Below, piece by piece: positions 3,325 to 61,779 of a stretch of 64,000 bases of DNA. Location of the stretch: assembly GCA_934098515.1 (NCBI GenBank), contig CAKOOK010000002.1, positions 18,371-82,370 of the forward strand, given 5' to 3'. Numbering within the stretch: position 1 is the first letter of the stretch; every line of letters starts with the position of its first letter. Under the pieces are notes generated by a model that searched no databases, was not told where the DNA came from, and saw only the letters and a list, made by a program, of their open reading frames with translations. The DNA is from an uncultured Bacilli bacterium (GTDB lineage Bacteria; Bacillota_I; Bacilli_A; RF39; UBA660). Position numbers and translations under genes: made by a program.

Positions 3325-5889
3325 TTACTGAAGCATATTTTCTAATTCACATCTAAATTTTGATTGCCCCTCTAATATTTTACCATTCTTTATGTAATCA
3401 AAAAACTCTGGGTATGCATTAGGGCTCAAAAAATGAAAGATATATTCCTCATTTTCTCCAACCTCATCAAGAATTTCATTTAAATTTTCGAAATGTTCAA
3501 TACCATATTTATATTTAGCTTTATTTTCTTCACTATCATCACCGTCTGCTTTTATTTCGACAACTAAATAATAAACTTTATTATTCTTTACAATTTTAAT
3601 AAAGAAATCAGGGTTAAATAATTGATTTTTAATTTGGTGACTATTCTTTTTCCAAGAGTATTCTATTGAATAAAATCCCATATCTCTTGATTTTATCCAT
3701 GAATCAACACAATTTGCAATTTCCTGTTTTGTCAGGTATTCAACAAAGTCGGATTCAGGTTTTCCAGTTGTAAAAACCATACTCATAGGTGTTTTAAATA
3801 AATAGGTATTTTTATTATTTAGTGATCTAACTGGTCTACTATCATCTTCTATAAAATCATTTAATATTTTTTTATCATCTTCTAATAATTCTTTATCGTA
3901 ATCATCTGTATAATATGCACGTGCCTCTTTTCTTAAACTTGAAATTGAAATAGTTTGTTTTGACATTGAATTTGTATCAATATCAAACACATTCATATTT
4001 TTTGATATTGGAATTACAGTTTTATTCTTCTTTCGTAAAAGTGTACCAAACGTTGTTAAAATATTATTTCTATTTTTTTCTGTTAAATAGTTATCAGTTA
4101 TTCCAACTTTTTTCATAGAATCAAGAATAATTTTTTTTATTATAAATCTGTCTGGAAGATTGTTTTGAGTATATTGTTCTTCTCCAAGCTTTAAAATTTT
4201 TCCTTCCCAATCTCTTGCTCTAAATTCAGTTATGATTTTATCTACTACCTCATCTACAGAATAGCATTCTCGCTTTATAATATAGTTTACTTCACTAATA
4301 TCTCTTGAATTATATAAAGACTGAAATGTAGTACCTTTTTCAATTTCTATACTTTGAGATTCTAATTTTATTCCATTATTTACTATATTTGAATAATCTA
4401 TTACAGTAGAATTTGCTTCTTTAGCTACTTCAATTTCTTCTTTTTCATAATTAATATTTTTTACAGTAAAATTAAATTTAGATCTATAACCTTCTAATAA
4501 AGGATAACCTGCTAATCTTGTTTCAACTTCCAAAACTTCAGAAACTAAATTAGAAATATTTCTACTCCATGAAACATGATTAAAAACTTTTACACTTGGA
4601 ATATTACCATAATATTCACTTGGTATCCTTAAACCTCTTCCTAAAACTTGTGATATTAACAACTTAGAATTAAATGCTCTATCTTCCCACGGAACAATTT
4701 GCATTACATTCTTAACATCCCATCCCTCAGTTAACATTGATACTGAGACAATCCATTCTATTGGACTTTCAATTTTGTCGACACTTTTTAATTTATTTTT
4801 TTCATCTGGTGAAGATTTGCTCGTGATTAATAATACTTTTTTGCTTATTTCCTCATATGATGTATTTAACTCATTTGAAAGAAATTCAATTAAATCTTCC
4901 GATAAATTTGTTGCATTTGAAATATTGGCACATACAAATATGGTAATTGGCTTAATTAAAGCATATCTTTCCTTATTCCTTATATGATTTTGATATATTT
5001 TTTGAAATTTTTCTTTTGTGGTTGTAGTATCATCTTTTATAGCATAATTTATATCTTTTACCGTTCTTTCATCTATTGCTTTTCTTAAAGAATATCTATA
5101 AATAACATCATTAAAGTATTCATTTTCGATATACGCAGTTCCTGTTAACCCTAAAATATACTTAAAGTTATAACTATCATTTAGCAAAAATTCTTTCCAC
5201 TTTTTCAAATCTTTATAAATACTCGCATTATAAATATGGTGTGCCTCGTCATTTATGACTAAAACATTGCCATGTGCATTTTTAAAGCTATCTTCAATGG
5301 ATGAACCAGTATTAGAATAAACTGCGTGAATATTCTCTATACATATATCTCCTGATTTAATTGTATAATTGCCATTAGTTAAATGAGGATTTTTTGTAAT
5401 TGCATCATCAGGAACTAAGCTTTGAATATTATTATCTGATAATAATTGCATAAACTTTTCAGTTAATCCGGCTTCTATTGTTGTAGATGGGCATAAAACT
5501 AAAACTTTATCCACTAACCCCAATCCAAGCATTATTTGTGCAACACCAAATATTATATAAGATTTACCTGTGCCAGTTGCTAAGTCAATAGTCGCAGTTA
5601 ATTTGTTTTTTAATTGTATATTATCATAGTATTCATTTATTGTATTATATTTTTCTTGTAAAACAGGATTTCTTTGATAATTTTCAAGTACTAAATCTTC
5701 AACACTACTATAATTGCCAGATCCTAAATATATAATTGCATTTTTAATTGCATCTATCTGATAATATCTATTACCACATAAACGTTCAATATATTCTTCC
5801 CATTTATCCAATGCTAATTTGTTATGATCATAATTTTTACTAACTTTAAGTGTCAAATCATCTGTTTTAAATATGTAATTATCTTTCAT
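3325..5889 (-). CDS. res: Type III restriction endonuclease Res subunit (SF2 helicase-like)
   Basis: 854 aa. GTGKS Walker A and DEAH box (LVINDEAHH). Overlaps the mod stop by 11 bp (translationally coupled mod-res). Confidence 0.85.
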   Translation of the reverse strand: MKDNYIFKTDDLTLKVSKNYDHNKLALDKWEEYIERLCGNRYYQIDAIKNAIIYLGSGNYSSVEDLVLENYQRNPVLQEKYNTINEYYDNIQLKNKLTATIDLATGTGKSYIIFGVAQIMLGLGLVDKVLVLCPSTTIEAGLTEKFMQLLSDNNIQSLVPDDAITKNPHLTNGNYTIKSGDICIENIHAVYSNTGSSIEDSFKNAHGNVLVINDEAHHIYNASIYKDLKKWKEFLLNDSYNFKYILGLTGTAYIENEYFNDVIYRYSLRKAIDERTVKDINYAIKDDTTTTKEKFQKIYQNHIRNKERYALIKPITIFVCANISNATNLSEDLIEFLSNELNTSYEEISKKVLLITSKSSPDEKNKLKSVDKIESPIEWIVSVSMLTEGWDVKNVMQIVPWEDRAFNSKLLISQVLGRGLRIPSEYYGNIPSVKVFNHVSWSRNISNLVSEVLEVETRLAGYPLLEGYRSKFNFTVKNINYEKEEIEVAKEANSTVIDYSNIVNNGIKLESQSIEIEKGTTFQSLYNSRDISEVNYIIKRECYSVDEVVDKIITEFRARDWEGKILKLGEEQYTQNNLPDRFIIKKIILDSMKKVGITDNYLTEKNRNNILTTFGTLLRKKNKTVIPISKNMNVFDIDTNSMSKQTISISSLRKEARAYYTDDYDKELLEDDKKILNDFIEDDSRPVRSLNNKNTYLFKTPMSMVFTTGKPESDFVEYLTKQEIANCVDSWIKSRDMGFYSIEYSWKKNSHQIKNQLFNPDFFIKIVKNNKVYYLVVEIKADGDDSEENKAKYKYGIEHFENLNEILDEVGENEEYIFHFLSPNAYPEFFDYIKNGKILEGQSKFRCELENMLQ

Positions 5890-7768
5890 TCAAATCACCA
5901 CTACCTTTTTTTATTTCGGTAAACTCATTACCAAAAATATCAGTATATATAATCATAACATCTAAATTACCAATTTTATTAAGATTAATTGTTATATTAT
6001 CATCTATTATTTTCAAATCATTAGCAAAATAATAATCAGTCATTAGAAAGTTTTGTCCATCATAGTTTTTATCAATAAAAATCGAAGCTAACGTTTCAAA
6101 ATTTTTATATTCATTGCCATCATTATCTACTAATGTCTTGCTATAGAATTTACTAAGAATTATTTCAATTGAACTATCATGTAGAATTATTTTGCTTTCA
6201 ACATCAGGCTGTTCAATGAAGTGAAAACCTATTGCCATATCTATATTATTGACACTATTCATGCTTTTTGATTGTTCCATTTTTTGAAATGGATATTTAT
6301 GTAATTCTTTTATTACTTGATATGGAATTTTTAAAAAATAATATCTAATTTCATTAATTTCAAAATAATCATTTAAAAAATCTACATTATTACTTGGAGC
6401 AACAATATAAATTCTGCCATTAATCCTACTTCCAATATTTTTATGTAATTCGTTTAGATAGTCTTCATCAATGCTAGAATCTTTATTTTTATTAAAGTCC
6501 CATATTTTAACATAATGATTCTTTTTAATACCATCAAAAGAAATTCCTGATATTTTCGTTTCCTTTAATTCAAATTCAAAAAGTTCAGAAACAAATTTTT
6601 TATAATCTTTCCAATCAAGTTTTAAAGTTTTTTCTAAATCATATAATCCAAGTTGGTATGTAGAAAATGTCTCGAAATCTTTCCCATATTTTTTATTTGG
6701 ATTAGTTAATGACCTGGATTTTTTAATATTTAATATTCTCTTCTGAATTGTATAAATAGATAATTTACCAATATCGCAAATAATCCACTTTCTTCCTAAT
6801 TTTTCAGCAGCAAAAGCAGTCATTCCTGATCCACCAAAGAAATCCATAACAATATCACCTTTTGATGATGCCGTTTTAATTATTTTTTCAAGCAATTTAA
6901 ACGGTTTTTCTGTTGGATATCCTGTTCTCTCAATTCCATCAATTTTTTGACGAGCAATAACTGGAATGTACCACCAATCTTCTGGAATTTTTCCTTTTTC
7001 CCTATTTTTTATCACATCTTCTTCTGAATAGTCTGCTCCAAATGCCTTTCTTAATCCTTGATTTGGATCTTTATATTCTTCTCTGATTTCATCTTCATTA
7101 AAAATCCATGTATCAGTTTTTGTATACCATAGTATAGTATCATGTTTTCTATTAAATTGTTTCATCTTTGATGATCCTGGACCAGTATATGTCCATATTA
7201 TTTCATTTCTTAAATTATTTTTACCAAATATTTCATCTAAAATCACTTTGATATAATGCGACATCCTGTAATCCAAATGAACAAATATTGAGCCATCATC
7301 TGATAAAATTTCTCTTGCTAAAATCAATCGTCTTCGCAGAAATTCTATAAATTGTGATCCTTTAACTTTGTCGCTATATGCCTTGGCCCCCTTTTTATTT
7401 TTAAATTCATCTTCCGTTGCAAATGGCGGATCGATATAAATGATTTTTACTTTGTCTTTTACTTTATCTTTAATTATAGGATCTTCATTTTCATATATAT
7501 TTTTTAATAATTGCAAATTATCTCCAAATACAAGCATATTCTCCCATTCGTTTTTATTTTTTTTAGCCCCAAACGTTTTATCTTTTTGCAAAGGAATAGA
7601 AAAAACCCCGTCAGCATCTTTTAGTATATCTTCCCTTTTCATTTTTCCAAAATATGACAATTCATATTCTTTATTTACTGTTGGAAAAAGAATTTCTTTA
7701 TATTCATCCGGAATACTATTTCCGGATGTTAACAATCTAATTAATTCATTTTTTGTTTCTTCGCTCAT
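5879..7768 (-). CDS. mod: Type III R-M Mod subunit (N6-adenine DNA methyltransferase)
   Basis: 629 aa. DPPF motif (IYIDPPFAT). Strong SD GGAGGT upstream of ATG. Immediately upstream of res. Confidence 0.85.
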   Translation of the reverse strand: MSEETKNELIRLLTSGNSIPDEYKEILFPTVNKEYELSYFGKMKREDILKDADGVFSIPLQKDKTFGAKKNKNEWENMLVFGDNLQLLKNIYENEDPIIKDKVKDKVKIIYIDPPFATEDEFKNKKGAKAYSDKVKGSQFIEFLRRRLILAREILSDDGSIFVHLDYRMSHYIKVILDEIFGKNNLRNEIIWTYTGPGSSKMKQFNRKHDTILWYTKTDTWIFNEDEIREEYKDPNQGLRKAFGADYSEEDVIKNREKGKIPEDWWYIPVIARQKIDGIERTGYPTEKPFKLLEKIIKTASSKGDIVMDFFGGSGMTAFAAEKLGRKWIICDIGKLSIYTIQKRILNIKKSRSLTNPNKKYGKDFETFSTYQLGLYDLEKTLKLDWKDYKKFVSELFEFELKETKISGISFDGIKKNHYVKIWDFNKNKDSSIDEDYLNELHKNIGSRINGRIYIVAPSNNVDFLNDYFEINEIRYYFLKIPYQVIKELHKYPFQKMEQSKSMNSVNNIDMAIGFHFIEQPDVESKIILHDSSIEIILSKFYSKTLVDNDGNEYKNFETLASIFIDKNYDGQNFLMTDYYFANDLKIIDDNITINLNKIGNLDVMIIYTDIFGNEFTEIKKGSGDLNER

Positions 7769-7905
7769 AACATTACCTCCAAAATACCAATATCCCTTGT
7801 ATAAAAATTATAACATATTTTTCGACAAAATTTGATAATTTGCGACCAATTCATACCAGAAATTACTGAATTGTACGAACAATCTTGACTAATTTTTAAT
7901 TTTAA

Positions 7906-35364: not shown

Positions 35365-35657
35365 TCTTCCATTTCTCTATAATCTATTGTATCACAACTT
35401 TTCCTAATTAAAAGCACATAATCATAGTTTTGATTAAATTTATCATAATTGTTCCTTATTATATTACGTAACCTTCTCTTATATAAATTTCTCTTATAAG
35501 CTTTTCCAAACTTATTACCAATAGCAATCCCAATTCTTACATTATCAAGTTTCTTTTCCTTTTTATATAATACAAAAAAATTGTTACTTATTCCTTTAGA
35601 ATTCTTAAAAAAATCATCAAATTCTAACTTACTCTTTATTCTAATTTCTTCTTTCAT
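35331..35657 (-). CDS. rnpA: Ribonuclease P protein component
   Basis: 108 aa, basic. RNR-like motif (KAYKRNLYKRRLR). Downstream of rpmH. Confidence 0.75.
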   Translation of the reverse strand: MKEEIRIKSKLEFDDFFKNSKGISNNFFVLYKKEKKLDNVRIGIAIGNKFGKAYKRNLYKRRLRNIIRNNYDKFNQNYDYVLLIRKSCDTIDYREMEDCFLNLIKKVK

Positions 35658-35694
35658 AACTCACCCATATAGAATAAAAACCACTGTACGTGGC

Positions 35695-35817
35695 TTATTT
35701 ACATAAAACTTTGCGTCCTTTTGCTCTACGTCTATTTAAAATATTACTAGCTTTTCTTGCAAAAAAACCAAACTTTTTCTTCATTTTACGATTATTAGGT
35801 TGAAAAGTTCTCTTCAT
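35695..35817 (-). CDS. rpmH: 50S ribosomal protein L34 (below track size cut-off)
   Basis: Hand translation [40 protein letters not shown]. Confidence 0.8.
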
Positions 35818-35829
35818 AAAAAATTGCAC

Positions 35830-36203
35830 CTCCACATCAAATTTAGCGTTTTTATTATATTATATTAAAGGCTGCAAGTCAATAAAAAGTTAACCTTCAA
35901 TTTATTAAAAAAATATCAAATAAAAAAATCTAACAAAAAATATAATTTTTAAATTTATAAAAAAGCAAAATTAGTAAATCCTAAATTATCAAAAAGTGGA
36001 AAATGTTTATATCTTTTTTTATTGTTAATTGTAATTTGTGGATATTGTTGAAAACTCACTCTAGACTATATAAATAAAAGGTTTGCATGTTGATAAAATG
36101 TTGAAAAAATTGTCGAATTTAATTTTTTTCATTTTCTCTCTTTATTTTTCCACAGACTTGATTTAAAATAGAACTATCAAAAACGAAGGACCGGGGTGAG
36201 GTA
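35830..36203. promoter_or_regulatory. oriC (rpmH-dnaA part): AT-rich unwinding region with DnaA-box-like 9-mers
   Basis: TGTGGATAT (about 36039), TTTTCCACA (36147-36155), AGTGGAAAA (about 35994). Further box-like TGTGGAGAA in the dnaA-dnaN spacer (about 37606). Confidence 0.6.
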
Positions 36204-37556
36204 ATGAAACATAATGTAAATTGGAATGATATTCTAGAAGTAATACAAAGCAAACTAAATCCATTATCTTATGATACCTGGTTCAAAGAAACTAAACTAA
36301 TTGGCATTAAAAACAATACCATACAAATAGAAGTTCCAATGGAATTTCATAAAAAAATTCTTAATCAAACATATTATGATTTAATCGAAGAAATAGTAAG
36401 TACAGTAACCGGAACATCTTATGACATTGAATTCTTATCATCAGAAGAAATAAAACCTCTTGAAATCCTTGAATTAGATAAAGTAGAAGAGCCAGAAAAT
36501 GAGAATTTAAATTCAAACCTTAAACCAGAATACACATTCGAAAATTTTGTAATAGGGGATAGTAATAGATTTGCTCAACTAGCAGCACTAGCCGTAGCAG
36601 AACAACCAGGAAAAATCTATAACCCATTATTTATATACGGTAAAAGTGGCCTAGGAAAAACCCACTTAATGCATGCAATCGGTAACTATATAGTACAAAA
36701 ATCAAATAAAAAAGTTCTATACGTTACAAGTGAAGAATTCATATCAGACTTCATTGGAATTAATAAAAAAGACGAAAACAACTACGATATAGTAAGTCAA
36801 TTTAAAGAAAAATATCGAAACATAGATATCTTAATGATAGATGACATCCAGTTCCTTGGTGGAGCAGCTAAAACTCAGCAAGAATTCTTCCATACATTTA
36901 CAAATCTCTATGACTCAAATAAACAAATTATTATTAGTTCAGACCGTTCCCCAGACGACTTAAAACTTCTTGAAGAGAGGTTACTAACAAGATTTAGATG
37001 GGGGCTAACAGCTAACATCGAACCACCAGATTTTGAACTTAGATGTAAAATTCTTAAAGATAAAATGACTGGACACGAAGTTGCTAAAATGGTTCCAAAT
37101 GAAGTAATAGAGTACATTGCAACAAACTGTGAAAACGATGTTAGACACTTAGAAGGTGCTATAACAAGACTATATGCTTATGCAGCAATGATGGGCCCTA
37201 AAGAAATTAACCTTGAATTTGCCGTAGATGCCCTTAAAGATTACATTGGTAAATCAATATATATAACCAACGACATTCAAAAAATTCAAAAAGCCGTCGC
37301 TGATTACTATCACATAACAATTGAAGATTTAAAAAGTAAAAAAAGAACATCAAACATCAATTATCCAAGACAAATTGCTATGTATCTGTGCCGAATGACA
37401 ACATCTGAAACAATCATAAAAATAGGACTAGAATTTGGTAATCGTGATCATTCGACAGTTTTACACTCATATGATAAAATAAATAATGAAATTCAAAATG
37501 ATGAAAACAACATAAGACAAGTAATAGAGGATATAAAAAACAAAATTGTTAATTAA
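36204..37556 (+). CDS. dnaA: Chromosomal replication initiator DnaA
   Basis: 450 aa. AAA+ GKSGLGKTHL. C-terminal DNA-binding domain. Confidence 0.95.
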   Translation: MKHNVNWNDILEVIQSKLNPLSYDTWFKETKLIGIKNNTIQIEVPMEFHKKILNQTYYDLIEEIVSTVTGTSYDIEFLSSEEIKPLEILELDKVEEPENENLNSNLKPEYTFENFVIGDSNRFAQLAALAVAEQPGKIYNPLFIYGKSGLGKTHLMHAIGNYIVQKSNKKVLYVTSEEFISDFIGINKKDENNYDIVSQFKEKYRNIDILMIDDIQFLGGAAKTQQEFFHTFTNLYDSNKQIIISSDRSPDDLKLLEERLLTRFRWGLTANIEPPDFELRCKILKDKMTGHEVAKMVPNEVIEYIATNCENDVRHLEGAITRLYAYAAMMGPKEINLEFAVDALKDYIGKSIYITNDIQKIQKAVADYYHITIEDLKSKKRTSNINYPRQIAMYLCRMTTSETIIKIGLEFGNRDHSTVLHSYDKINNEIQNDENNIRQVIEDIKNKIVN

Positions 37557-37669
37557 AAAAGTTTTGCACAAACAATACACATCAAATTTTTCCCATAATT
37601 GTGGAGAAAAAAAGACTTATTAACATTTTCAACAGCAATAATAATAAAAAAAAGAAAGAAGGAATAAAA

Positions 37670-38785
37670 ATGAAATTATTGATTGAAAAAAATATTATTT
37701 TAGAAAGCTTAAGTAACGTAATGAGAGCTATCTCACCAAGAAATATAATTCCAATATTAAACGGAGTATTATTTGAACTAACAGAAGAAGGGCTATACCT
37801 AACTGCAAGTGATAGTGATTTAGTTATTAAAAACTTTATTCCTAAAGAAAACATTAAAAACATCACAGAAACTGGAAAAACAGTAATTCAAAGTAAATAC
37901 TTACTAGACATCATCAGAAAAATGCCTAATACAGATATTAATATTGAAGTACTAGAAGACTTAAAAGTAATAATTAGTACAGAAAACACTATGTATAATT
38001 TAAATTGTTTAAATATAGAAGATTATCCACAAATAAATCTAGAAGAAACCAAAAATCCCATTATTATAGAAAGCGATGTACTAAAAAAGATTATTTCCCA
38101 AACAATATTTGCAATCTCAACACAAGAATCAAGACCATTACTTACAGGTTTAAACTTCAAAATAACTGGTAATGTACTAGAATGTATTGCTACTGATTCT
38201 TATCGTCTAGCTAAAAAAACTATAATTTTAGATAAAGAATATGATTCATGCAACATAGTAATCCCTGGTAAAAACATTAATGAATTTGATAAACTACTTA
38301 CTACAAACGAAAATGTGGAAATACATACATTTAGTAACAAAATTTTATTTAAATATAATGGATATTTATTTCAATCAAGCTTATTAAATGGAACTTATCC
38401 AAATACTTCTAACTTAATACCAAATGAATTTAGCATTATTTTAACAACATCTTTAGATAAATACTTCAGTGCTATAGATAGAGCAGCACTTCTTACTCAA
38501 AGTAAAGAAAAAAACATTGTAAAAATGGAAACAAGAAATAATGAATTAATCGTTTCTTCATACGCCAGTGAAATTGGAAAATCTGAAGAAAGCGTAGAAG
38601 TAGACAAAAACACATCAGAAGACATATCTATCTCATTTAGTTCAAAATACATGTTAGAAGCCCTAAGAACATTTGAAGAGGAAGAATTACTAATATTCCT
38701 AAACTCAGATTCTAAGCCAATAGTACTTAAATCTGTTAAAGATGAATCATTAATTCAATTAATATTACCAATTAAAACGTACTAA
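37670..38785 (+). CDS. dnaN: DNA polymerase III beta sliding clamp (start taken at internal ATG MKLLIEK)
   Basis: Three-domain clamp, about 372 aa from this start. Follows dnaA. Confidence 0.9.
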   Translation: MKLLIEKNIILESLSNVMRAISPRNIIPILNGVLFELTEEGLYLTASDSDLVIKNFIPKENIKNITETGKTVIQSKYLLDIIRKMPNTDINIEVLEDLKVIISTENTMYNLNCLNIEDYPQINLEETKNPIIIESDVLKKIISQTIFAISTQESRPLLTGLNFKITGNVLECIATDSYRLAKKTIILDKEYDSCNIVIPGKNINEFDKLLTTNENVEIHTFSNKILFKYNGYLFQSSLLNGTYPNTSNLIPNEFSIILTTSLDKYFSAIDRAALLTQSKEKNIVKMETRNNELIVSSYASEIGKSEESVEVDKNTSEDISISFSSKYMLEALRTFEEEELLIFLNSDSKPIVLKSVKDESLIQLILPIKTY

Positions 38786-38816
38786 AAGTGGGAAAAATCT
38801 CACTTTTTATTTTTTT
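38786..38816 (+). terminator. Probable intrinsic terminator after dnaN
   Basis: AAGTGGGAaaaaTCTCACTT followed by TTTTATTTTTTT. Confidence 0.45.
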
Positions 38817-38824
38817 GTGCATAA

Positions 38825-38851
38825 TTCGACATTTTTCGACAAATTTCGACA
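38825..38851. promoter_or_regulatory. Three direct TTCGACA repeats (= Spo0A-box TGTCGAA on the opposite strand) at exactly 10-bp phasing
   Basis: TTCGACA at 38825, 38835, 38845. Located 40-70 bp upstream of the comK-like start. Confidence 0.5.
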
Positions 38852-38891
38852 AACCACCTGTGCTATAACTAAAAGCAAGGGGGTGAAGTAC

Positions 38892-39335
38892 ATGAAAGAT
38901 TACAATATTAATAAAAACACACTTGCACTAATGCCATATGGTAAAAACAAATCATTAGTTTTTGAAAAACACAAATATTATATAGTTAACCAAAAAGTAA
39001 ATAAACTAATGGATGAAAGTTGTCGTTATAACGGAAGCACCATTGAAGGAAGAGCTAAAGGAACAGAATCGTTAACAGGAATTTCTTATAAAGCTCCAAT
39101 TATTGTTAAAGAAGAAGAGAATATTATATTTTTTCCAACGTGCTCACCAAGGCTAAAAGAATGTTCTTGGATTAATGCAGGTAATATCAGTAATATCTAT
39201 AAGAAAAAAGACCGATGTTTAGTTGAATTTTATAACAAAGAAACTTTAGAATTTGATATATCTTATAACATTATGAATAATCAATTAAGCAAATCACTAT
39301 TATTAGAAAAAAAGTTTAAAAAAAGAGGCAAATAA
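38892..39335 (+). CDS. ComK-like competence transcription factor homologue
   Basis: Aligns with B. subtilis ComK core (..DESCRYNGSTIEGRAKGTE..KAPIIV....IFFPTCSPRLKECSWIN..). Strong SD AAGGGGGTG. Confidence 0.55.
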   Translation: MKDYNINKNTLALMPYGKNKSLVFEKHKYYIVNQKVNKLMDESCRYNGSTIEGRAKGTESLTGISYKAPIIVKEEENIIFFPTCSPRLKECSWINAGNISNIYKKKDRCLVEFYNKETLEFDISYNIMNNQLSKSLLLEKKFKKRGK

Positions 39336-39443
39336 CGCCTTTTTTTATTTTATAACCCATTAAATTATGATATAATATTAACTGTATATAGGAGTACGCA
39401 TAAACCTATTTTGTTAAAAATTTGTTCTAAAAGAGGGTTAAAA

Positions 39444-42450
<3,007 letters not shown>

Positions 42451-61427: not shown

Positions 61428-61779
61428 GGGGTCGTATGGTTTCGACAGAATATATATTTATATATTTGCAAGTGGTATGCTATGCCTAAAATAGCAACAC
61501 AGTTAAAATAACTGACAAAACTAATTATAATACTGCTTTAGCATTTGCCTAGTTGCAATTAAAGCGCTACCTATCAATCTTATTTCTGCGGAGACAATAG
61601 GTGGTTCATATTAGCAGAATATACTTTAGTATTTCTTCAATACTAGAAAGAATCCCTAGAAGATATTCAATATAACTTTGTTAGTTTGCAGATATTGAAA
61701 AATTAATAAACTGACTAAACTTGTAGAAGGTATATAAATAGTATTTTGGACAGTGGTTCAAATCCGCTCGGCTCCACCA
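61428..61779 (+). ncRNA. ssrA: tmRNA (ssrA); candidate tag reading frame ..(A)DKTNYNTALAFA*
   Basis: 5' GGGGTCGTATGGTTTCGACAG (tRNA-like acceptor/D region). 3' GGACAGTGGTTCAAATCCGCTCGGCTCCACCA (T-arm + CCA). Internal ORF ending GCT TTA GCA TTT GCC TAG. Confidence 0.85.

Follow-up and report, generated by a model that had tools for sequence, protein, structure and literature searches.

The best-described case of a competence regulator under direct control of Spo0A is the comK promoter of Bacillus subtilis (PcomK), which phosphorylated Spo0A (Spo0A~P) binds at five sites that mediate activation as well as repression (Mirouze et al. 2012, PMC3297582). The recognition motif, referred to as the 0A box, reads TGTCGAA, and two boxes placed 3 bp apart give rise to one Spo0A footprint of 25-30 bp (PMC2731898). 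Within the box core, the G and the CG are important for binding, with the CG being contacted specifically by Spo0A, and the specificity is common to B. subtilis and C. difficile, where a perfect box predicts binding (PMC3485338). Boxes 3 bp apart under one extended footprint are likewise found at abrB, at promoters of the phages phi29 and Nf and upstream of spo0A itself (PMC2731898). These arrays mostly repress or autoregulate and lie either downstream of the start site or far upstream of it, while spoIIG is cited as a Spo0A-activated promoter (PMC2731898, PMC12090719). Here, a ComK-family gene is described that carries three perfect 0A-type boxes directly upstream and that occupies the slot between dnaN and recF in an uncultured Bacilli bacterium of the RF39 lineage; the analysed stretch of contig CAKOOK010000002.1 (assembly GCA_934098515.1) comprises 64,000 nucleotides (nt) and is called the window in the following. 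The locus is read, with moderate confidence, as a Spo0A~P-activated sigma-A promoter that would drive the ComK homologue as a self-contained gene within this slot.

The gene lies at 38892-39335 on the plus strand (ATG at 38892, TAA at 39333-39335, the stop codon being counted in the coordinates) and encodes a protein of 147 amino acids (aa). An earlier note on this DNA, made from the letters and a list of open reading frames (ORFs), had assigned it to the ComK family, and a profile hidden Markov model search bears this out with a full-length match to Pfam family PF06338 (ComK; E=2.1e-40, 138.4 bits vs a cut-off of 22.3) that covers profile positions 2-150 of 152. The translated ORF holds DESCRYNGSTIEGRAKGT and FFPTCSPRLKECSWIN, and its identity to residues 9-157 of B. 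subtilis ComK amounts to 36% over 149 residues. Unlike its B. subtilis counterpart, the protein is devoid of the C-terminal ~35 residues. PF06338 is present in all of the 85 database homologues, the named ones being annotated as 'competence protein ComK' from metagenome-assembled genomes (MAGs) of uncultured 'Bacilli bacterium'. No NCBIfam model (no equivalog) matches the protein, and no solved structure is related to it by sequence. For a confident AlphaFold2 model of this ComK homologue (pLDDT 93.9), the best structural matches in Foldseek are LytTR DNA-binding domains, namely a B. cereus LytTr domain, AgrA and ComE, with a probability of ~1 and TM-scores of 0.37-0.56; the similarity of the ComK, LytTR, RemA and SwrD folds has already been remarked upon in a 2026 preprint (PMC13232269). 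Taken together, the product of 38892-39335 is a member of the ComK family. A functional ComK activates the DNA-uptake genes comG, comE and comF and is restrained by MecA/ClpCP.

Upstream of this gene, the heptamer TTCGACA (TGTCGAA on the other strand) occurs three times on the plus strand, at 38825-38831 (box 1), 38835-38841 (box 2) and 38845-38851 (box 3), exactly where the earlier note had placed it. Its typing of the three sites as tandem 0A boxes also stands, as every copy matches the 0A core TGTCGAA at 7/7 positions, the phasing is exactly 10 bp and the 3 bp between boxes correspond to those of Spo0A footprints (PMC2731898). Eight copies of TTCGACA are found on both strands of the window vs 3.5 expected, yet the phased triple occurs once and is absent from 100 shuffles of the window, even with 3 mismatches allowed. 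The array is not a product of chance. Box 3 ends 12 nt before the hexamer of an extended -10 element, TGcTATAAC at 38861-38869 (+), with the TG at 38861-38862 and the hexamer at 38864-38869. Transcription is predicted to start near 38876, which would place box 1 at about -51 to -45, box 2 at -41 to -35 and box 3 at -31 to -25, the three boxes together spanning approximately -51 to -25. A consensus promoter scan returned no -35/-10 pair for the comK-like gene; at a spacing of 16-18 nt, the -35 position reads AAATTT, CAAATT or ACAAAT, none of which is a -35. The strong ribosome-binding site noticed before is the Shine-Dalgarno sequence GGGGGTGA at 38879-38886 (+), which is located 5 nt before the ATG and is kept in related loci. 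Rfam gave no structured RNA in 35500-40000, the leader included.

The surroundings of the gene are those of a chromosomal origin. Following rpmH-rnpA, which point leftwards, the order is dnaA, dnaN (37670-38785), the comK-like gene, recF (39444-40541), gyrB and gyrA, and the GC skew changes sign at 36-38 kb, 2.6 kb from the comK-like locus; because of this skew switch and gene order, the region is the replication origin region. Bacillus-type origins are organized as dnaA-dnaN-yaaA(rlbA)-recF-remB-gyrB-gyrA, the slot between dnaN and recF normally holding the S4-domain gene yaaA. The window shares with them the order rnpA, dnaA-dnaN-X-recF-gyrB-gyrA as well as the GC-skew switch at dnaA, but here X is a ComK-family gene with a promoter and terminators of its own, and no remB is located between recF and gyrB. 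No S4-like ORF is found between dnaN and recF in the window, so that the claim of an exchanged slot occupant is upheld. By contrast, membership of the gene in the replication operon, which had been claimed along with it, is contradicted by terminator-like hairpins on both sides and by the gene's own predicted promoter. The first hairpin, at 38784-38807 (+), consists of a 10-pair stem and a T-run and is predicted to end the dnaN transcript; the second, at 39320-39346 (+), overlaps the comK-like stop codon and is predicted to end the comK-like transcript. It is followed by a promoter-like site for recF at 39349-39376 (TTTATA-16-TGnTATAAT). Since hairpins flank the gene and separate promoter-like elements precede it and recF, it is predicted to form its own monocistronic transcription unit and not to belong to the replication operon. 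Relatives have hairpins of differing sequence at the same place after dnaN. As for dnaN itself, the longest mechanical ORF begins with GTG at 37601, the likely start being ATG at 37670 (MKLLIEKN...) after GAAGGA. Given this start, the dnaA-dnaN spacer measures ~113 nt and contains one DnaA-like box (TTCTCCACA), which is short for a Bacillus-type unwinding region.

Compared with B. subtilis comK, the locus has in common a ComK-family promoter with Spo0A sites, one of which overlaps the -35 region, and the gating of expression by the Spo0A~P level that operates there is proposed for the gut locus as well. The B. subtilis promoter, however, contains five dispersed, imperfect sites (1-2 mismatches) and integrates further inputs via ComK boxes, Rok, CodY and AbrB, whereas the gut locus displays three perfect boxes in a single array that replaces the -35, without a recognisable K-box. 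Moreover, the gut gene resides in the dnaN-recF slot and not in the B. subtilis comK locus. A second point of reference is provided by spoIIG and spoIIE of B. subtilis, sigma-A promoters that lack a properly spaced -35 and have 0A boxes over -35 to -55. The -35-like element of spoIIG lies 22 bp from its -10, and box 2 of the gut array analogously puts TCGACA 22 nt from the -10 hexamer. The spoIIG boxes are weak and need high Spo0A~P, while the gut boxes are perfect and the third one extends into the spacer.

A protein-based scan with one genome per species afforded 35 loci, 34 of which display rnpA and the order dnaA-dnaN-comK-like-recF-gyrB-gyrA, with a Macrococcus locus as the exception. Within the 34 syntenic loci, identity drops to 49% for DnaA and to 41% for the ComK-like protein. 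The upstream regions nevertheless align gap-free, from the dnaN stop via hairpin, T-run, box, 3 nt, box, 3 nt and box to 8-9 nt, TG, 1 nt, the -10 hexamer, ~20 nt, GGGGGTGA and the start codon, the array and the TGn -10 staying in register down to 41% ComK identity. The distance from box 3 to the -10 amounts to 11 nt in 25 and to 12 nt in 4 of 32 lineages, and TGn precedes the -10 in 27 of the 32. Box integrity, which was counted in the 26 lineages ascertained by protein only, is complete (21/21 positions) in 5, reaches at least 19 positions in 12 and is at most 15 in 7 of the 26. The spacers between boxes are variable (TTT, AAT, AAA, TAA, ATA, TAT); a locus found by motif (L121) even has CCG and CGA as spacers, its boxes still being perfect. 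Phased double boxes with <=1 mismatch number 48 in ~500 kb of sequence ascertained by protein, and every one of them is located at a comK-like promoter and in the orientation of the gene. A triple-pattern scan of metagenomes uncovered further dnaN-boxes-comK-like-recF loci with ComK-like identities of 29-43%, which, being motif-found, show breadth and not independent conservation. As the layout is kept across the whole clade, which consists of uncultured low-GC gut Bacilli, it very likely constitutes a real regulatory switch.

The following mode of action is considered the most likely. Three head-to-tail 0A boxes would occupy the -35 region of an extended -10 promoter that has no -35, and Spo0A~P would bind to them cooperatively, taking them as tandem units. 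With perfect consensus sites, binding and response could take place already at low Spo0A~P. The bound regulator may then recruit or reposition RNA polymerase on the -35-less promoter, as at B. subtilis spoIIG and spoIIE, and the ComK homologue would thus be turned on when the stationary/sporulation programme starts. That Spo0A is the protein bound by the three boxes is considered highly probable; given its binding, activation is rated somewhat more probable than repression. Activation is favoured because no lineage has a -35 and because the layout resembles that of spoIIG. In addition, the boxes keep a rigid distance from the -10 and a fixed orientation towards it, which suggests a stereospecific contact with RNA polymerase and not just occlusion.

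The opposite sign has to be weighed on the same features. Spo0A~P could repress a promoter that is active in growth, where it would profit from origin-proximal gene dosage, and shut it off once sporulation sets in. Extended -10 promoters can do without a -35 element, and the array covers part of the core promoter, box 3 being placed between the -35 and -10 positions. Precedents exist in phage promoters, which Spo0A represses via 0A boxes overlapping the core promoter (PMC2731898), and in site R1 of B. subtilis PcomK, which lies over the -35 and brings the competence window to an end (PMC3297582). Occlusion, however, needs neither the rigid 11-12 nt spacing nor the single orientation that nearly all lineages maintain, and promoters that depend on an activator typically lack a -35, as those of all lineages do here. 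Furthermore, the same box-to-(-10) geometry recurs before spoVS and other genes in low-GC contigs. On balance, repression is judged unlikely, though a serious alternative, and activation by Spo0A~P is retained as the preferred direction.

In view of the location near the origin, the repeats might alternatively be bound by DnaA, as a DnaA-box cluster immediately past dnaN that would couple the regulator to replication status. Several observations can be cited for this idea. TTTTCGACA differs by one base from the DnaA-type boxes of the clade, TTTTCCACA/TTTTCAACA, and the comK-like locus is only 2.6 kb away from the GC-skew switch. A DnaA-box-like 9-mer, TGTGCATAA at 38816-38824 (+), abuts box 1 with one mismatch to TGTGGATAA, and at the homologous position two relatives (L013, L163) have a perfect TGTGGATAA. 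Upstream of dnaA, a change of one base turns one box type into the other at homologous positions: the opposite strand of the window carries a perfect TGTCGAA at 36111-36117, 93 nt upstream of the dnaA start in the promoter/oriC region, where relatives have the DnaA-type box TGTGGAAAA (L006-L008 compared), and in L008 TTTTCGACA stands where others have TTTTCCACA.

These points are outweighed by the behaviour of the central base. Among the TTCNACA heptamers upstream of comK in 29 lineages, 49 of 59 have G, all 49 on the coding strand, as opposed to 1 of 68 in the 300 nt upstream of dnaA, where TTC(C/A)ACA makes up 66 of the 68 heptamers and both strands are used. One protein would not impose such opposite constraints, and the reading as DnaA boxes was rejected on this contrast between G and C/A. 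Judged by their sequences, the comK boxes and the dnaA-upstream boxes are distinct classes under opposite constraint. With DnaA boxes defined as TTATCCACA or the clade's TTWTCMACA with at most one mismatch, the comK boxes, which have two mismatches to TTATCCACA, fall outside a DnaA-box cluster on account of both these mismatches and the G-position contrast. Their CG core consists of the very bases that Spo0A contacts specifically (PMC3485338), and the identical array is found before spo0A in unrelated Clostridia. Binding by DnaA is regarded as very improbable. A different situation is encountered in one sub-lineage (L011, L013, L014, L163), in which the CG cores are lost and the middle box reads TT(A/T)TCAACA, i. 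e. the clade's DnaA-type box. Here, the input may have switched from Spo0A to DnaA rather than decayed. A considerably bolder version is considered quite unlikely. It takes triple box and extended -10 for an ancient, rigid 'Spo0A-only' module, through which the ComK-type regulator would respond to Spo0A more sensitively than any other direct target in a clade of minimal (~1.1 Mb) gut spore-formers, the input having been switched to DnaA in one sub-lineage by single-base changes.

The distribution of the array beyond the clade bears on a further possibility, namely that another regulator recognises the repeats, either the ComK homologue itself in an autoregulatory loop or a different response regulator. 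In B. subtilis, the comK promoter is activated by ComK (PMC3297582), and spo0A was not found in the searches for this organism. Many response regulators, moreover, bind phased direct repeats. On the other hand, all three heptamers agree with the 0A consensus at 7/7 positions and bear no likeness to the AAAA-N5-TTTT ComK box; autoregulation by ComK is considered improbable, as no K-box of this B. subtilis type is located near the gene. The triple array also precedes genes in high-GC Clostridia that do not encode a ComK homologue, such as spo0A, spoVS and orphan kinases. Taken together, a binder of this kind is given very little credence, and Spo0A is kept as the favoured one.

In detail, triple TGTCGAA arrays with 3-nt spacers lie ~130 nt upstream of spo0A in two high-GC gut Clostridia contigs (L040 1031-1057; L149 773-799 and 6139-6165), and their flanking sequence is common to L049, L081, L096, L106 and L107. 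Unlike the comK-like array, the arrays upstream of spo0A are inverted with respect to the gene that follows. Metagenome contigs of other Firmicutes have the triple box in front of spoVS, two short orphan histidine kinases and soj/parA (genes at L073 8286-8549, L063 1374-2156, L082 6605-7423 and L043 617-1411). Since it precedes spo0A, spoVS, orphan kinases and soj/parA, the triple array is not tied to ComK. The geometry of box 3, 11-12 nt and -10 is likewise present before other genes, including spoVS, in several low-GC contigs. A 28% GC contig encodes a 303-aa protein without Pfam match (L089 2876-3787) behind an identical triple box at 3830-3856, the promoter reading box 3, 11 nt and TGtTATTAG, with the ribosome-binding site GGGGGTGAG as in other loci. 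It may be a second gene of this regulon, carried by a related organism. Numerous metagenome matches to the triple pattern were discarded as TTCGACATGG-type tandem repeats in non-Firmicute contigs. The tandem repeats of TTCGACATGG or TTCGACACCC adjoin AGCTCACCAACCG repeats in mid-GC contigs and constitute an unrelated repeat family (L046, L047, L050, L057, L062, L085, L095, L112, L118, L127 and others).

The proposed control presupposes a host that sporulates and encodes Spo0A. Pfam confirmed SpoIID, SpoIIR, YabG, YabP, BofA, an M23 peptidase and an AbrB/SpoVT-type protein in the window, all intact, the M23 peptidase gene adjoining spoIID and the AbrB/SpoVT-type gene following mfd. Thereby, the spoIID, spoIIR, spoVT-like, yabG, yabP and bofA-like genes listed in the earlier note are substantiated. 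DivIC and a class A penicillin-binding protein are encoded in the window as well. A human-gut MAG contig (URHW01000001.1, 'uncultured Tenericutes bacterium UMGS1021') encodes an identical ComK-like protein and neighbouring proteins that are 95-100% identical, and an index of public assemblies, mostly from the human gut, has the exact 147-aa protein in 6797 blocks (loci L166-L175), 13 of which have contigs of 1.09-1.15 Mb. Complete contigs of ~1.1 Mb with this protein include ERZ28751383 contig_11648, ERZ28752768 contig_26134, ERZ28759208 contig_13135 and URHW01. The host is a very common gut bacterium that has kept sporulation genes despite a genome of probably ~1.1 Mb. A study that compared the uncultured Bacilli orders RF39, RFN20 and ML615J-28 predicts RF39, with spoIID and yabG as in the window, to be spore-forming, and related uncultured Bacilli orders to include predicted sporulators that encode spo0A (PMC10868615); its supplementary table names neither these MAGs nor spo0A. 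On the basis of six sporulation genes that are intact in the window, and of this literature on related uncultured Bacilli (PMC10868615), the host genome presumably encodes Spo0A.

Searches for the gene itself led elsewhere. Matches of tblastn with B. subtilis Spo0A, run on the window and all loci, were confined to unrelated Clostridia contigs, and a word-indexed Spo0A search returned Bacillus matches alone and none from the clade. From an exhaustive representative search, the most AT-rich candidates were picked among the best 150 of 1699 matches at E<1e-30. Two of the proteins considered as the Spo0A of the clade, P0319 and P0270, could not be tied to it, the context of P0270 being phage-like. 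P0270 is a full-length Spo0A homologue (L162 10001-10822, contig CATJZA010000243.1) at the end of a phage-like gene run with genes for a single-stranded-DNA-binding protein, a primase-like zinc ribbon, a phosphoadenosine phosphosulfate (PAPS) reductase and an N6 methylase, and it may be a phage-borne Spo0A.

Several results weigh against a Spo0A~P-activated comK-like promoter and are brought together here. With B. subtilis Spo0A as tblastn query, no spo0A was detected in the window, nor in the clade loci that were retrieved, and of three low-GC Spo0A candidates taken from the best 150 of the 1699 matches none could be tied to the clade. About one quarter of the protein-ascertained lineages have degenerate boxes. 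Loss of the boxes does not simply track loss of sporulation, as bofA, the sole sporulation marker in reach for this comparison, is still present in L163 with its degenerate boxes and in L164 with one box. The overlap of the array with the core promoter, with box 3 between the -35 and -10 positions, is compatible with repression. Finally, no type-I K-box (AAAA-N5-TTTT), a B. subtilis-type motif that may not be that of the clade, is located near the gene, the sole match in the window lying inside a coding region at chance level.

The other copies of the heptamer in the window are scattered. TTCGACA at 61441 lies inside the tmRNA gene (61428-61779; tag peptide DKTNYNTALAFA), the copy at 37451 inside dnaA and that at 3556 inside res of a type III restriction system, which is encoded on the minus strand as a restriction-modification pair (res 3325-5889, mod 5879-7768). 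A single box before mod had been noted at 7824-7830; its true position is 7821-7827, ~55 nt upstream of mod, and as chance expectation covers such a copy, it is evidence of nothing.

What is already known is the direct control of comK by Spo0A in B. subtilis (PMC3297582). New are the three perfect boxes in place of a -35, the location in the dnaN-recF slot and how deeply the layout is conserved in a gut clade that is uncultured and genome-reduced; the literature search yielded no publication on ComK in the dnaN-recF slot, on ComK in RF39 or on UMGS1021. Direct control of comK by Spo0A is otherwise known from B. subtilis alone, where the sites are weak and the promoter is complex. If the proposed reading is true, the link from Spo0A to ComK would be older and more widespread, and a very prevalent uncultured gut lineage with a tiny genome would have it in a pared-down and hard-wired version. 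It would also provide a handle on how an uncultured organism responds to Spo0A, be it by DNA uptake or by a K-state-like programme. In addition, the rigid box-to-(-10) geometry could serve as a sequence signature for the prediction of Spo0A-dependent promoters in metagenomes.

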